Source: a virus (lineage: Duplodnaviria > Heunggongvirae > Uroviricota > Caudoviricetes). From it: DNA of 64,000 nucleotides. This document shows positions 5,155-28,805 of this stretch, one piece after another. The stretch lies in IMG/VR virus record IMGVR_UViG_3300035210_000151. One strand, 5' to 3'. How positions within the stretch are numbered: position 1 is the first letter of the stretch; the number at the start of each line of letters is the position of its first letter. The notes under the pieces are model-generated. The model had not been told where the DNA came from, searched no databases, and was given only the letters and a program-made list of their open reading frames with translations. A program made the position numbers and the translations under genes.

Positions 5155-5688
5155 ATGCACATTCGACACCTTGTATTAACCAGTATGCTATCTGTTTTAG
5201 CTTTTTCAACCAGTGCGGTAGCTGCTAGTGCCGAGCCTGTTGTTAAGAAATCTACTGAAATCTCTACCTTTGGTATTAAACTGGGCCAACCTGTTACAGA
5301 TCTTAATGTTCTAAAAGTTGAGACGATGGGCGAAAGATATTCAGTTGAACCTAGTCATCCTATTGAATTTTTTGATTCGTATAACGTTACAACCACACCC
5401 GAGTATAATGTTTACAAAGTTTTTGCTTCAGGTGAGATTAAAAATTCTACCTATACCTGTAATGAAGCCGCTGCTTTTCTCAGTAAAGAATTTGAGAAAA
5501 CATATGATACAAGTTTGTTTAAACCATTGTCGCCAAAGGTGGGTCAATACATATATATGAGCAAAGATGTTAGTGTTTCTATTATGTGTATTGGACAAAA
5601 TTTGGGTTATACTTTTGCTTATCAAAAAGACCTTTCAAGTTATCCTGTCCCTATTGATAAATTTAAAGAATTCAATATTAAAATTTAA
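5155..5688 (+). CDS. Exported protein, FGI(K/E)(L/V)G family copy 1
   Basis: Sec-type signal peptide (SAVA-A); AAGGAG RBS before ATG 5155. Confidence 0.75.
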   Translation: MHIRHLVLTSMLSVLAFSTSAVAASAEPVVKKSTEISTFGIKLGQPVTDLNVLKVETMGERYSVEPSHPIEFFDSYNVTTTPEYNVYKVFASGEIKNSTYTCNEAAAFLSKEFEKTYDTSLFKPLSPKVGQYIYMSKDVSVSIMCIGQNLGYTFAYQKDLSSYPVPIDKFKEFNIKI

Positions 5689-25280: not shown

Positions 25281-25508
25281 ATGTTTTATGTCTATCATGG
25301 CTATGTTTCACCCGACAACTACGATTCAAGCGAACGTCCTACTTATCAACTTAGTTCTTTTCATACCGAAGATGAAGTCATAGCATTTAAAGAAGAGTTT
25401 GAAGCTGAACTTCATGATGAATGTATGAAACCTATTTTTAGAGTCATCACAGGTAGAGAAATGTCATTGAAACCCGTAGAAACCGTCACTACTTGGAAAC
25501 TATCATAA
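25281..25508 (+). CDS. Small hypothetical protein
   Basis: AGGAG RBS before ATG 25281. Confidence 0.7.
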   Translation: MFYVYHGYVSPDNYDSSERPTYQLSSFHTEDEVIAFKEEFEAELHDECMKPIFRVITGREMSLKPVETVTTWKLS

Positions 25509-25522
25509 CTTAGGAGTTATCT

Positions 25523-26371
25523 ATGCACTATATTAAGTATGTATTAAGCTTTATCTTATTACTGGTATTGGCTGGTTGTAATGATACACCTGATGACGTT
25601 CGGCCAACAGCAGATGCAAAAGTCTATTTTGATCAACAACTGAAAACTACTCTGGCTGCTGCAAAGTCAAAAGAAGACCCTTTTGAAGCTTATCAACTAT
25701 TGTTAAGGGCTTATTATGGTCTAGGTAATGATAAGGAAAAACTACTCTATAAAGATGACACTAGAAAGTTATATATTGCTCAATCTGGATTTGTTGTGAA
25801 CGGCGGTTCAGCACTAGATAATAAACAAGAAGCGATTAATAATATGTATGTTTATTTAGAGTCTGCTTTGAAAAATGGTAATAAAAAAGCTTTTCTAGAA
25901 TTATATGAAGGCGAACAATCAGAACCAGCTAACTTTGGTAATGATATGACAATGAGGCTTAAATCTGATCAATTGCAAACTAAATTCAGCGAAGCTTATA
26001 AAAATTTAGTTGAAACACTTTCAGTAGGTGATCCTATTGATAATGCTCTGATTACAAGCTATGCAAGCCAACTTAAAAATGGTGAGTTCTATCAAAAGAA
26101 TACAGCTAAGTCAGTTGAATACTATCTCAAACTCTACCCAGTTGATAAAGTTGTTCCTTTATACTTGATTGGTGTCTATTTGGATATCAATGATTATGAG
26201 AATGCTTATTTCTGGAAAGTTCGTTGTATTGATGCCTGTGATGCTAGATATAAGAAAATTAGTATTGTTAGTCGAAATCTACCTGACTTATTCAGAAAAC
26301 AGCTAACCAGTGATCAATTTAAAGCTATCGAAGAAGCTTCCAATGATCCAACAAGAACAAGTTTTAAATAA
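25523..26371 (+). CDS. Predicted lipoprotein, helical (Sel1/TPR-like C-terminal part)
   Basis: Lipobox LAGC; KNTAKSVEYY and YENAYFW resemble Sel1 repeats (inference). Confidence 0.65.
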   Translation: MHYIKYVLSFILLLVLAGCNDTPDDVRPTADAKVYFDQQLKTTLAAAKSKEDPFEAYQLLLRAYYGLGNDKEKLLYKDDTRKLYIAQSGFVVNGGSALDNKQEAINNMYVYLESALKNGNKKAFLELYEGEQSEPANFGNDMTMRLKSDQLQTKFSEAYKNLVETLSVGDPIDNALITSYASQLKNGEFYQKNTAKSVEYYLKLYPVDKVVPLYLIGVYLDINDYENAYFWKVRCIDACDARYKKISIVSRNLPDLFRKQLTSDQFKAIEEASNDPTRTSFK

Positions 26372-26384
26372 TCTAACATACCGC

Positions 26385-26413
26385 TTGAATTTTTTTAAGC
26401 GGGCTGCTATAAT
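26385..26413 (+). promoter_or_regulatory. sigma70 promoter of the Ser/Tyr leader
   Basis: TTGAAT-17 nt-TATAAT with TG extended -10; inverted repeat CCGCTTGA/TTAAGCGG overlaps the -35. Confidence 0.75.
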
Positions 26414-26447
26414 GGATACTATTATTTACTTTGTGGAGAAATACAAA

Positions 26448-26498
26448 ATGAAACCTACATTTGCTGTATCCTATTATTATTCATCATATTCTAGTTAA
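26448..26498 (+). CDS. Ser/Tyr-rich attenuator leader peptide MKPTFAVSYYYSSYSS
   Basis: GGAG RBS at 26435; codons TCC TAT TAT TAT TCA TCA TAT TCT AGT then TAA. Confidence 0.8.
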   Translation: MKPTFAVSYYYSSYSS

Positions 26499-26587
26499 CT
26501 GACCAGAGTAGAGGTCAGTTATGGCCTCGAATTCTTGGATAGTAATTATCTTAGACCCTTTGAAGGCCACCTTCAGAGGGTTTTTTT
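26496..26587 (+). promoter_or_regulatory. Ribosome-mediated transcription attenuator (four competing hairpins)
   Basis: A 26496-504:26513-521; B 26511-517:26522-528; antiterminator C 26522-531:26559-569; terminator D 26555-565:26571-581 plus T7. Confidence 0.8.
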
Positions 26588-26627
26588 ATGTCCATAGTGG
26601 CAGGGTTAAGTTCAACCTAAAACAATG

Positions 26628-26640
26628 TAAGTTGTTGATT
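26628..26640. promoter_or_regulatory. IHF consensus site
   Basis: Reverse complement AATCAACAACTTA fits WATCAANNNNTTR. Confidence 0.45.
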
Positions 26641-26677
26641 TAAAAAGAAAATAGTTTAAAATAATTTAAAATAGTTG

Positions 26678-26706
26678 TTGACAAAGACGAAAGAAGTTGA
26701 TAGAAT
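26678..26706 (+). promoter_or_regulatory. Strong sigma70 promoter directly upstream of tRNA array
   Basis: TTGACA-17 nt-TAGAAT with AT-rich UP-element-like region. Confidence 0.85.
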
Positions 26707-26758
26707 GTTAAACATGAAGAGTTGAGAAGAAAAACGAAAAACTCTTAGTAACACAAAT

Positions 26759-26846
26759 GGAAGATTGGTCGAGTGGCCGATGGCGTCAGTCTTGAAAACT
26801 GAAGGGTGTAACAGCTCCGTGAGTTCGAATCTCACATCTTCCTCCA
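26759..26846 (+). tRNA. trnS: tRNA-Ser(UGA) copy 1
   Basis: Acceptor GGAAGAT/ATCTTCC, loop CT-TGA-AA, long V arm, TTCGAAT, encoded CCA; unusual U73. Confidence 0.93.
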
Positions 26847-26868
26847 AATTTAGTTTCAAAAGTATCAT

Positions 26869-26952
26869 GGTTAGTTGGCAGAGTGGACGATTGCGGGGGA
26901 CTGTAAATCCCTTCCGAAAGGCACGGTGGTTCGAATCCATCACTAACCACCA
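26869..26952 (+). tRNA. trnY: tRNA-Tyr(GUA) copy 1
   Basis: Acceptor GGTTAGT/ACTAACC, loop CT-GTA-AA, A73, CCA. Confidence 0.93.
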
Positions 26953-26974
26953 AATTAGTTGTAAACTGTTTTAT

Positions 26975-27058
26975 GGGAGTTTCGCATAGTGGCCGATTGC
27001 ACGGGACTGTAAATCCTGCTCGAAAGACTCGGTGGTTCGAATCCATCAACTCCCACCA
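26975..27058 (+). tRNA. trnY: tRNA-Tyr(GUA) copy 2
   Basis: Acceptor GGGAGTT/AACTCCC, loop CT-GTA-AA, A73, CCA. Confidence 0.93.
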
Positions 27059-27086
27059 AATTTAGATGTAATCGTAAGAACAATAT

Positions 27087-27175
27087 GGACGCATTTCCTG
27101 TCATCCGCCTGTAAAGCGGACGCCTTTATAAGACAGGTCGGTTGGCGAGAGGTTCGAATCCTTGTGCGTTCACCA
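27087..27175 (+). ncRNA. Atypical tRNA-Tyr(GUA)-like RNA lacking a D hairpin, potential pseudoknot
   Basis: Acceptor GGACGCA/TGCGTTC, stem TCCGC/GCGGA with CT-GTA-AA loop, T loop TTCGAAT, ACCA end; D region only 10 nt, and its CCTGTC is complementary to GACAGG in a 27-nt variable arm. Confidence 0.75.
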
Positions 27176-27197
27176 AATTAGTTGTAAAACCGTATAT

Positions 27198-27285
27198 GGA
27201 AGCTTGGCCGAGTGGTTTAAGGCAACAGTCTTGAAAACTGTCGGGTGTAATAGCCCCGTGAGTTCGAATCCCACAGCTTCCGCCA
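27198..27285 (+). tRNA. trnS: tRNA-Ser(UGA) copy 2
   Basis: Acceptor GGAAGCT/AGCTTCC, G73, CCA. Confidence 0.93.
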
Positions 27286-27308
27286 GATTAGATACAATGT
27301 TTTATTAT

Positions 27309-27392
27309 GGGTGTTTCGCATAGAGGCCGATTGCGGCTGGCTGTAAACCAGCATCGAAAGACACGGTGGTTCGAATCCATCAACACCCACCA
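27309..27392 (+). tRNA. trnY: tRNA-Tyr(GUA) copy 3
   Basis: Acceptor GGGTGTT/AACACCC, stem GCTGG/CCAGC, A73, CCA. Confidence 0.93.
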
Positions 27393-27405
27393 AATTTATA
27401 TTTAT

Positions 27406-27458
27406 GGAGAGTATGGGGCTGTTGTTATCTCGTAACAATGGTTAACCGCTATCCACCA
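27406..27458 (+). ncRNA. CCA-terminated mini-hairpin RNA, copy 1 (53 nt)
   Basis: GGAGAG...CTATCC-ACCA acceptor-like stem plus 11-bp hairpin; same spacer context as the tRNAs. Confidence 0.65.
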
Positions 27459-27462
27459 ACAT

Positions 27463-27550
27463 GGAAGCGTGGCCGAGTGGTTTAAGGCAACAGTCTTGAA
27501 AACTGTCGGGTGTAACAGCCCCGTGAGTTCGAATCTCACCGCTTCCGCCA
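27463..27550 (+). tRNA. trnS: tRNA-Ser(UGA) copy 3
   Basis: Acceptor GGAAGCG/CGCTTCC, G73, CCA; near-identical to copy 2 with compensatory 7:66 change. Confidence 0.93.
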
Positions 27551-27556
27551 AATTAT

Positions 27557-27607
27557 GGGGAGAAGGGTTGTCTTTTATTTATAGAAGGCGATATCCGCTA
27601 CCCACCA
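27557..27607 (+). ncRNA. CCA-terminated mini-hairpin RNA, copy 2 (51 nt)
   Basis: GGGGAG...CTACCC-ACCA; covaries with copy 1; 9-bp hairpin. Confidence 0.65.
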
Positions 27608-27627
27608 TTTCATCGTCAAAAAACTTC

Positions 27628-27658
27628 AAGAACAACGCAATGTTGTTCTTTTTTTATT
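27628..27658 (+). terminator. Terminator of tRNA array
   Basis: AAGAACAAC-GCAAT-GTTGTTCTT plus T-run. Confidence 0.8.
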
Positions 27659-27671
27659 TATAAAATTTTAA

Positions 27672-27700
27672 TTGATTTTTTATGTAATTAAGAGTATCAT
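27672..27700 (+). promoter_or_regulatory. sigma70-type promoter of toxin-like cassette
   Basis: TTGATT-17 nt-TATCAT. Confidence 0.55.
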
Positions 27701-27732
27701 TCTTTTTCAATTTATGATAAGGGATTTAATTA

Positions 27733-28805
27733 ATGAAAATGAAGTTAAGATATTTTTTAGTGTTATTGTTATCACTTGTCATATCAACAAGTCAAGCAAA
27801 CTCTTTAACAAGTCACATACCTTTTTTTCCGTCTAAAAAAACTATTATTAAAGGTGTTCTGGTAACTGGAACTATTGGAGTGCTTGGCTACTATGTTTAT
27901 TCACAATTATCTAAATTTATTGAAAATACAATAAAAAAAATGATGAGGGAAAAATATCTGACTGGGAAACAGCTAATCTTATAGCTAAAGAAATTGATAA
28001 AATACTCAATAATCCTAAAAAAACAGATCAACAAAAAAGTCAAAGTGTTGTTGAAGCTCAACAATTGTTGCTTTATTATGCCATTGCGTACTATGAACCT
28101 AATGGAAACGATATTTATGATATTGCAATTAGGACCGCAAAAAAAGCAAATATTTATACTGGTGATTTCGATTATGAGTTACAACAAGGCATTAAAATGA
28201 CGACTGAAATTATGCGTAATATGATTTCATTAGCTAATGAAAAAGATATGGAAGATACTAAGTCAAAAAGAAATAAGTGTGATATTAATGATATAGCTGC
28301 TAGAACATATATTTACAATTCATTAAATCCAATTGATCCATTGTACACGGATGTTAATCGACCTATACGTGAATTTGACACTGGAGCTTATAAAAACTTA
28401 AACTTTGTAACCAAAAAATATGCAAAATTGTATAAAATAAAAGATAATTTTGATCATGATCATATTCCGTCTTTTGCTTCATTAAAAACTTATTTAGAAA
28501 ATAGAGATCAATATGTAATAAATTTTGATAATAAATTAAGGAACGTTATTCAACAAAATGGCACTGTAGTTGCAATTAATCAAGCAATGTACGCTGCTGG
28601 GCGAACGTATAAGGGGCGAGCTACATCTACTATGATAAGAGATTCAAAAGATCTTAGAAAAGCAACTATAAAAGATTTTAAGATGCATTATTATTATTAC
28701 AAAAAAAATGGATCAAGTAACCCTAGTTTTGAAACTTTATTTAATAAAGCTTTTATACAAACGTATCAAAGAAATAAAATGATGTGTTTATATGTTAACC
28801 GATAG
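27733..28805 (+). pseudogene. Frameshift-split exported polymorphic-toxin-like gene (signal peptide + TM + DHIPS nuclease-like domain); -1 shift at A8 27933-27940 gives 357 aa
   Basis: Frame 1 ORF 27733-27984 overlaps frame 3, which is open from 27924 to 28805; junction ATA AAA AAA A; DHDHIPSFASLK...RTYKGR resembles HNH-like toxin tips (from memory). Confidence 0.55.

Follow-up and report, generated by a model that had tools for sequence, protein, structure and literature searches.

Leader-peptide attenuators of amino-acid operons, among them hisL (RF00514), trpL, pheL, thrL, leuL and ilvL, consist of a promoter, an open reading frame (ORF) of 14–32 codons with a codon run, mutually exclusive hairpins and a terminator, and they control biosynthetic enzymes; the thrL and ilvL leaders are multivalent. 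The pheST attenuator of E. coli, with its pheM leader, senses one codon family and controls PheRS, and T-box riboswitches bind uncharged tRNA, with no translation, to choose between terminator and antiterminator. The role of phage tRNA genes has been debated for fifty years, with codon supply set against escape from tRNA-targeting defences. Retron-Eco7 PtuAB degrades tRNA-Tyr, and strongly expressed T5 tRNA-Tyr rescues infection (PMC11555353); evasion of anticodon nucleases has also been put forward as a role of phage tRNAs, with Ser tRNAs among the nuclease targets (PMC10264068). Here we analyse a leader cassette that precedes an array of Ser and Tyr tRNA genes in a 64,000-nucleotide stretch of viral DNA (Caudoviricetes; IMG/VR record IMGVR_UViG_3300035210_000151), which we refer to as the window. 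We think it likely that this cassette works as a ribosome-mediated attenuator of the his/trp type, sensing Ser/Tyr decoding and gating transcription from its promoter, P1, into the array.

The leader cassette and its conservation among relatives

In the window, a promoter-proximal ORF with a Shine-Dalgarno (SD) sequence carries a run of Ser and Tyr codons near its end, and an intrinsic terminator (D) stands between this leader and the tRNA genes, though a second promoter (P2) intervenes (Table 1). A reading of the letters alone (the original prediction) had listed a promoter, ribosome-binding site, 16-codon ORF, four hairpins and tRNAs, and we found every one of these elements where it had placed them; its reasoning did not include P2. 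The first array tRNA begins 172 nt after the T-run of D, and only P2 and tRNA genes lie between D and the terminator that closes the array. Three Ser(UGA) and three Tyr(GUA) genes at 26759-27550 are the only tRNAs in the window according to ARAGORN and Rfam. The codon run is exceptional in this sequence: no mixed Ser/Tyr 9-mer other than SYYYSSYSS occurs in any of the six frames, two-amino-acid runs are uncommon (the six frames hold 29 overlapping nine-residue segments, clustered at few places), and among 31 small ORFs situated before strong terminators only the leader has both an 8/8 two-amino-acid run and an SD. The SD motif of the leader is also used by the genes of the window, at a spacing of 6–8 nt. 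The window as a whole has 32% G+C and contains tandem paralogue families, and almost none of its ORFs has a match in Pfam or PHROG.

Homologues of the upstream 282-aa gene (40–85% identity) led to 16 related loci, and a pattern match in a metagenome added one more; these relatives are contigs of 323–520 kb and one 98%-complete, 437-kb phage from IMG/VR. The leader cassette was conserved in 14 relatives, and we counted variable alignment columns in the 12 distinct close-relative sequences that cover the leader (Table 1). The three variable columns between the stop codon and the T-run fall one each in the loop of hairpin A, the apical loop of hairpin C and the length of the T-run itself. The SD is GGAG in all relatives with type-1 or type-2 leaders and AGGA in a diverged copy (L024/L029, below), and terminator D was found in all relatives, this diverged copy included. 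Taken as a whole, the conservation profile is the one predicted for a promoter, a translated leader and an RNA switch.

The arrangement of the Ser/Tyr run shifts among close relatives, and its residues are always Ser or Tyr. The type-2 leader, MKPTFKFSSSYYYSYSR, differs from type 1 by two in-frame indels and has an identical codon set (four TAT, two TCA, and one each of TCC, TCT and AGT). The corresponding array (L001) additionally has Ser(GCU) and Ser(AGA) and therefore holds a plausible decoder for every Ser codon of its leader. In-frame indels preserve the reading frame across three leader variants, including MKPTFKFSSSYYYSYSR and MKTTLMTTSYYYSYYSH, the leader of L024/L029. The leader, the codon run and the hairpin covariation, for which the original prediction had proposed looking in related genomes, were all three present there.

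The covariation in hairpins A and B came from the diverged copy. L024, on a 323-kb contig, was reached through a homologue of the downstream phosphoesterase, and L029, in the 437-kb IMG/VR phage, has an identical sequence. The order of elements in L024 (P1, SD, leader, hairpins, terminator, P2 and array) is that of the window, and its leader shares only M-K and the Ser/Tyr run with the window leader; these two parts are also all that the three leader peptides have in common. From stop codon to T-run, L024 differs from the window by 15 substitutions and 8 gap columns, and all four helices were nevertheless kept, each folding independently, at −12.6 (A), −11.4 (B), −19.4 (C) and −14.7 kcal/mol (D). 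Hairpins A and B are 100% paired in five distinct sequences, each hairpin with one double compensatory and one wobble-preserving change; in L024 these changes are U-A to C-G and C-G to U-G in A, and A-U to G-C and A-U to G-U in B. The change at position 26517 (A to G) is matched at both of its partners, 26500 in A (U to C) and 26522 in B (U to C); such a double covariation is what a nucleotide that has to pair in two exclusive structures should show. Among random mutants of the window sequence that carried as many substitutions of the same types, 8 of 10,000 retained the four helices at ≥75% stability, and 0 of 5,000 reached the helix values of L024. These results support an A/B/C/D chain that purifying selection maintains, with compensation in the diverged homologue. 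In addition, the gene upstream of the cassette in L024/L029 is divergently transcribed, and D is therefore not the terminator of an upstream operon; in this different neighbourhood the P1-leader-terminator-P2-array cassette stays one unit.

An inverted repeat surrounds the −35 hexamer of P1, and its arms co-vary across relatives (CCGCTT/AAGCGG, GAATCCTT/AAGGATTC and ACGCTT/AAGCGT, with a 10-bp form in L024). We observed this repeat, at lengths of 6–10 bp, in the window, in L010, in L016 and at L024:4327-4354. Because L024 is without a co-directional upstream gene, the repeat is not the 3′ hairpin of an upstream mRNA; a candidate role is possibly the control of P1.

Table 1. Features of the leader cassette and the tRNA array in the window, with variable alignment columns among the 12 close-relative sequences.
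Feature	Position	Strand	Details	Variable columns
Inverted repeat around P1 −35 hexamer	26381..26402	+	arms 26381-26386 / 26397-26402	
Promoter P1	26385..26413	+	TTGAAT-17-TATAAT, TG before −10; 10/12 consensus matches	
P1 −35				1/6
P1 spacer				12/17
P1 −10				0/6
5′ untranslated region			SD kept	19/34
Shine-Dalgarno GGAG	26435..26438	+	9 nt 5′ of ATG	
Leader ORF	26448..26498	+	ATG 26448, 16 codons + TAA (26496-26498); peptide MKPTFAVSYYYSSYSS	
ORF codons 1-5				0/15
ORF codons 6-7				all
Ser/Tyr codon run	26469..26495	+	nine codons (TCC, TAT×4, TCA×2, TCT, AGT) in the order TCC TAT TAT TAT TCA TCA TAT TCT AGT	
Stop codon to T-run, 95 nt				3/95
Hairpin A	26496..26521	+	26496-26504:26513-26521, 9 bp; 5′ arm opens with stop codon; excludes B; −12.8 kcal/mol	
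Hairpin B (anti-antiterminator)	26511..26528	+	26511-26517:26522-26528, 7 bp, GUUA loop; −10.9 kcal/mol	
Antiterminator C	26522..26569	+	26522-26531:26559-26569, inner helices 26533-26535:26553-26555 and 26537-26541:26547-26551; about −17 kcal/mol	
Intrinsic terminator D	26553..26587	+	14-bp stem 26553-26583, CCA loop, then U7; −20.1 kcal/mol	
Spacer 3′ of terminator				32/72
Promoter P2	26678..26706	+	TTGACA-17-TAGAAT, TG, A/T-rich upstream region; 11/12 matches, near-consensus	
tRNA array	26759..27608	+	Ser(UGA), Tyr, Tyr, D-arm-less Tyr-like, Ser(UGA), Tyr, mini-hairpin, Ser(UGA), mini-hairpin	
D-arm-less Tyr-like element	27087-27175	+		
CCA-ended mini-hairpins	27406-27458, 27557-27607	+		
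Terminator closing array unit	27628..27650	+		

Alternative hairpins and the predicted switch

The four hairpins share strands as those of a leader-peptide attenuator do: the anti-antiterminator B shares strands with the 3′ arm of A and with C, the antiterminator C takes 26553-26555 and 26559-26569 from the 5′ arm and loop of D, and the stop codon lies in A. From this arrangement, the following mechanism can be proposed. RNA from P1 would start at about 26420, and the 16-codon leader would be translated. With fast decoding of Ser and Tyr codons, the ribosome would reach the stop codon, with which A begins, and would cover the 5′ arm of A; the 3′ arm would then pair with 26522-26528 to give B, withholding the 5′ strand of C, and with C prevented D would form and the RNA would end at about 26587. 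With a stall in the Tyr/Ser run, A would form and B would be excluded, leaving 26522-26531 free to zip onto the emerging 26559-69 as C; D would thus be prevented, and polymerase would run through P2 into the tRNA genes. With no translation at all, the codon run would pair with 26526-26546, probably giving termination too. The anatomy of this mechanism is seen in the sequence, and its timing steps are what we infer from that anatomy. The array tRNAs read the Tyr codons and most of the Ser codons of the leader, and the circuit would therefore be a negative feedback, which would top up Ser/Tyr tRNAs above the basal level from P2.

To fold the transcript with a ribosome in place, we took the footprint as ~15 nt on either side of the A site; a ribosome covers about this length on each side. 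In these masked folds of transcripts to 26560, a ribosome at the stop codon blocked A, and B formed once 26528 had been made, whereas a ribosome stalled at the Tyr codons left both arms of A free, and A formed. The combination of A and C is the fold of transcripts that end at the terminator loop. Without a ribosome, the codon run paired with its downstream segment in all three leader types, and this region 1:2-type pairing would probably favour termination (superattenuation). The original prediction had instead expected read-through from an untranslated leader, and the folding argues against that step. The attenuator anatomy that it proposed fared better: the selection on the helix chain, the Ser/Tyr run as the only conserved part of the peptide and the constant linkage to the Ser/Tyr array all speak for it.

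Several observations weigh against this reading and temper our confidence in it. The full-length transcript forms terminator D at equilibrium wherever the ribosome mask is placed, and at transcript length 26569 C is likewise the minimum-free-energy structure for all masks; a choice between them must accordingly be a kinetic one, in which B would have to persist over roughly 40 nt until D is made. Compared to dinucleotide shuffles, the pairing energy of the antiterminator (p = 0.10) and that of the codon run with its downstream segment (p = 0.22) are both within chance, so alternative pairings would not by themselves establish a switch. A single diverged lineage supplies the hairpin covariation, and shuffle controls are weak with five rows (112/500 and 93/500). 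P2 sits between terminator D and the array, and the array may be made mainly from P2; given that the array has this promoter of its own, the attenuator can only add to basal array transcription. The Ser tRNAs of the window array are all Ser(UGA), so the TCC and AGT codons of the leader need host tRNAs. Finally, the RNA-library data for the cassette consist of contigs only.

Those contigs, from wastewater metatranscriptomes, cover the leader and the array and not the flanking genes, and the flanks of the relatives are too diverged for matching. One contig spans terminator D and some run into the upstream gene of a relative, and the contigs may contain DNA. The RNA-library runs with the stretch were mostly from wastewater and pig samples.

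The tRNA array, its second promoter and rival explanations

P2 is kept in every relative whose sequence extends that far, L024 among them, and the layout suggests an array designed with a basal promoter and an inducible upstream promoter. P2 and its A/T-rich region (26637-26720) resemble promoter regions of Acinetobacter phage and large coliphages (77–89% over 40–66 nt), a weak hint of a gammaproteobacterial host. Just 3′ of the P2 start, relatives retain a 7-bp hairpin (AAGAGTT/AACTCTT, 26717-26746) whose loop varies; it may serve to process or stabilise the array precursor. Relatives also retain the D-arm-less Tyr-like tRNA of the array and its CCA-ended mini-hairpins, including those at L024:5330-5418 and 5432-5483. 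In one relative, an IS605-type TnpB gene (OrfB_IS605 and Cas12f1-like TNB) lies ~150 nt downstream of the array (L010:5231-6664, L011:4071-5504).

Across the arrays of four relatives, the Tyr-type tRNAs have nine anticodon stems, all compensated, on near-identical bodies. One example is GGGGA/TCCCT versus TTTGA/TCAAA (window 26869-27392 and the L001, L010 and L017 arrays), and the loop of the Tyr-type tRNA in one relative reads TTGTAAC in place of CTGTAAA. The Ser(UGA) anticodon stems are nearly invariant in the relatives' arrays. The variability of the Tyr stems fits diversifying pressure on the Tyr anticodon arm.

The 437-kb phage (G001, IMGVR_UViG_3300031133_000383) allowed the array to be compared with the other tRNA genes of a nearly complete genome. 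In G001, Rfam gave 27 tRNA matches and ARAGORN 25 clean calls, spread over 13 loci, and of these loci the Ser/Tyr array alone has a leader ORF and a terminator; this combination was not found at the other 12, and the Leu(CAA) gene, inspected by eye, has a plain promoter. The prediction of only Ser and Tyr tRNAs consequently applies within the 64-kb window and does not extend to G001, which carries at least 25 tRNA genes. G001 also encodes TyrRS, SerRS, TrpRS and a short ThrRS (L046, L047, L048 and L049), none of which tblastn found encoded in the window; SerRS lies 28 kb and TyrRS 16 kb before the Ser/Tyr array. Upstream of tyrS, at L046:1281-1328, is a 15-codon ORF (MKATFHFQKSFTVRY) with its own promoter and SD, the first 15 nt of which nearly match the start of the array leader; the segment 3′ of its stop codon can pair with the SD region of tyrS (fold z = −1.85), and the ORF may be a translational leader for tyrS. 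Flanked by Leu(UAA) and Met tRNA genes, G001 also has a tRNA with a CUA anticodon (amber suppressor type; Pyl per ARAGORN; L045:2948-3021), with two ~100-nt repeats and a tRNA-like element just upstream (L045:2230-2700); this tRNA raises the possibility of TAG recoding in the phage lineage of G001.

These features of the array bear on what the attenuator might be for. In a counter-defence version, nuclease or toxin attack would deplete host tRNA-Tyr or tRNA-Ser, the leader would stall, and the phage would respond with resistant tRNAs, equipped with diversified anticodon stems, and with decoys; in G001, the phage's own TyrRS and SerRS would charge the array tRNAs. The nine compensated Tyr stems are what such a contest could leave behind, the array holds the D-arm-less Tyr-like element and the CCA-ended mini-hairpins, and the single tRNA locus of 13 in G001 that is predicted to be attenuator-controlled is the Ser/Tyr array. 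Precedent exists in the PtuAB attack on tRNA-Tyr and its rescue by T5 tRNA-Tyr (PMC11555353), a background that the original prediction gave correctly, and in the targeting of Ser tRNAs by nucleases (PMC10264068). However, the leader would respond alike to amino-acid starvation, charging defects and high codon demand; ordinary demand exists, with Tyr making up 5.4% of the predicted residues of the window and TAT 40 per 1000 codons; and P2 already gives constitutive expression. We might infer a defence-sensor role for the attenuator from these features, but the sequence is compatible also with plain supply-and-demand control, and we regard the counter-defence version as a tentative one that is probably not the explanation.

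It is more doubtful still, and in our view unlikely, that the cassette is a self-contained small gene merely lying next to the array, whose roughly 170-nt P1-to-D RNA always terminates and acts as a micropeptide or a base-pairing small RNA. This account would make sense of a strong terminator that is the equilibrium structure in all conditions and of an array with its own promoter, and the near-invariant 95 nt would also fit a trans-acting RNA. It leaves unexplained, however, why two pairs of exclusive helices, an antiterminator among them, are maintained by selection when a constitutive terminator needs none, why the peptide is not conserved beyond the Ser/Tyr run, and why the amino acids of the leader match the array exactly. 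A chance ORF before the terminator of an upstream operon is the least credible explanation, and both the conservation pattern and the setting of L024 already contradict it. In the window, five co-directional genes ending at 26371 do require a terminator, and D is the first one that they meet. In L024/L029, however, the gene before the cassette is transcribed divergently; conservation covers the promoter hexamers, SD, ATG and frame as well as the 57 nt from stop codon to terminator; and the Ser/Tyr run is unique within the window.

Distribution and comparison with known systems

Exact-pattern scans of IMG/VR for the type-1 leader, the hairpin and the Tyr-like element gave no match, nor did a protein-based IMG/VR scan with the upstream gene or two scans across bacterial and archaeal species genomes. 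The GenBank phage collection yielded only tRNA matches and promoter-like matches to the P2 region, and there was no array context for P0013 and P0010, which are remotely homologous to the upstream gene, or for the Metallophos homologues P0037 and P0032. The cultured jumbo phage 7t3 of Salmonella has a Ser-Tyr tRNA pair that stands alone (L023:3120-3612), with a plain promoter and no leader; its tRNA-Tyr is 93% identical to the first tRNA-Tyr of the window, anticodon stem included.

Rfam gave the cassette a weak structural resemblance to one described leader family, which counts in favour of an attenuator. The His_leader model (RF00514) scored 32.2 bits (E = 0.0013), under its gathering threshold of 49 bits, with the match on hairpin B and the terminator; the leader has no His codons in frame, and the cassette is not a member of RF00514 and has no sequence homology to the his leader. 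Phe_leader (RF01859) scored 17.1 bits against a threshold of 55 bits. We also considered a T-box and rejected it, as RF00230 matched neither 26380-26700 (E up to 10) nor 25500-28500 (E up to 1), and a leader ORF is present. Searching the full-text literature turned up no description of tRNA genes or phage tRNA arrays under leader-peptide attenuation, in agreement with the original prediction, which was aware of no described attenuator of a phage tRNA array.

If the cassette is the attenuator that we propose, the phage would measure decoding capacity and supply tRNAs on demand, and leader-peptide attenuation, known from amino-acid operons and from pheST, would reach viruses and tRNA genes as well. 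The feedback loop would be unusually direct, since the product of the controlled genes decodes the sensor, and the 210-nt cassette makes the question of codon supply versus defence testable by reporter.

Compared to the amino-acid operon leaders, the cassette has the same set of parts, and its two-amino-acid sensing would be similar to that of thrL and ilvL, but it precedes phage tRNA genes, with a second promoter after the terminator. The T-box would resemble it in that a choice between terminator and antiterminator tunes decoding machinery to the state of a specific tRNA; in place of direct tRNA binding, however, the cassette has an ORF of translated type with a codon run. T5, like the window array, provides phage tRNA-Tyr in quantity, and tRNA-Tyr is a documented defence target; T5 does so from a constitutive strong promoter with no sensor described, and the window array adds a predicted attenuator. 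The closest system is pheST, in that it controls decoding machinery for the sensed amino acid, but pheST is cellular and its product is a synthetase, whereas the cassette is viral and the tRNAs that it would control themselves decode the sensor codons, giving a shorter feedback loop.

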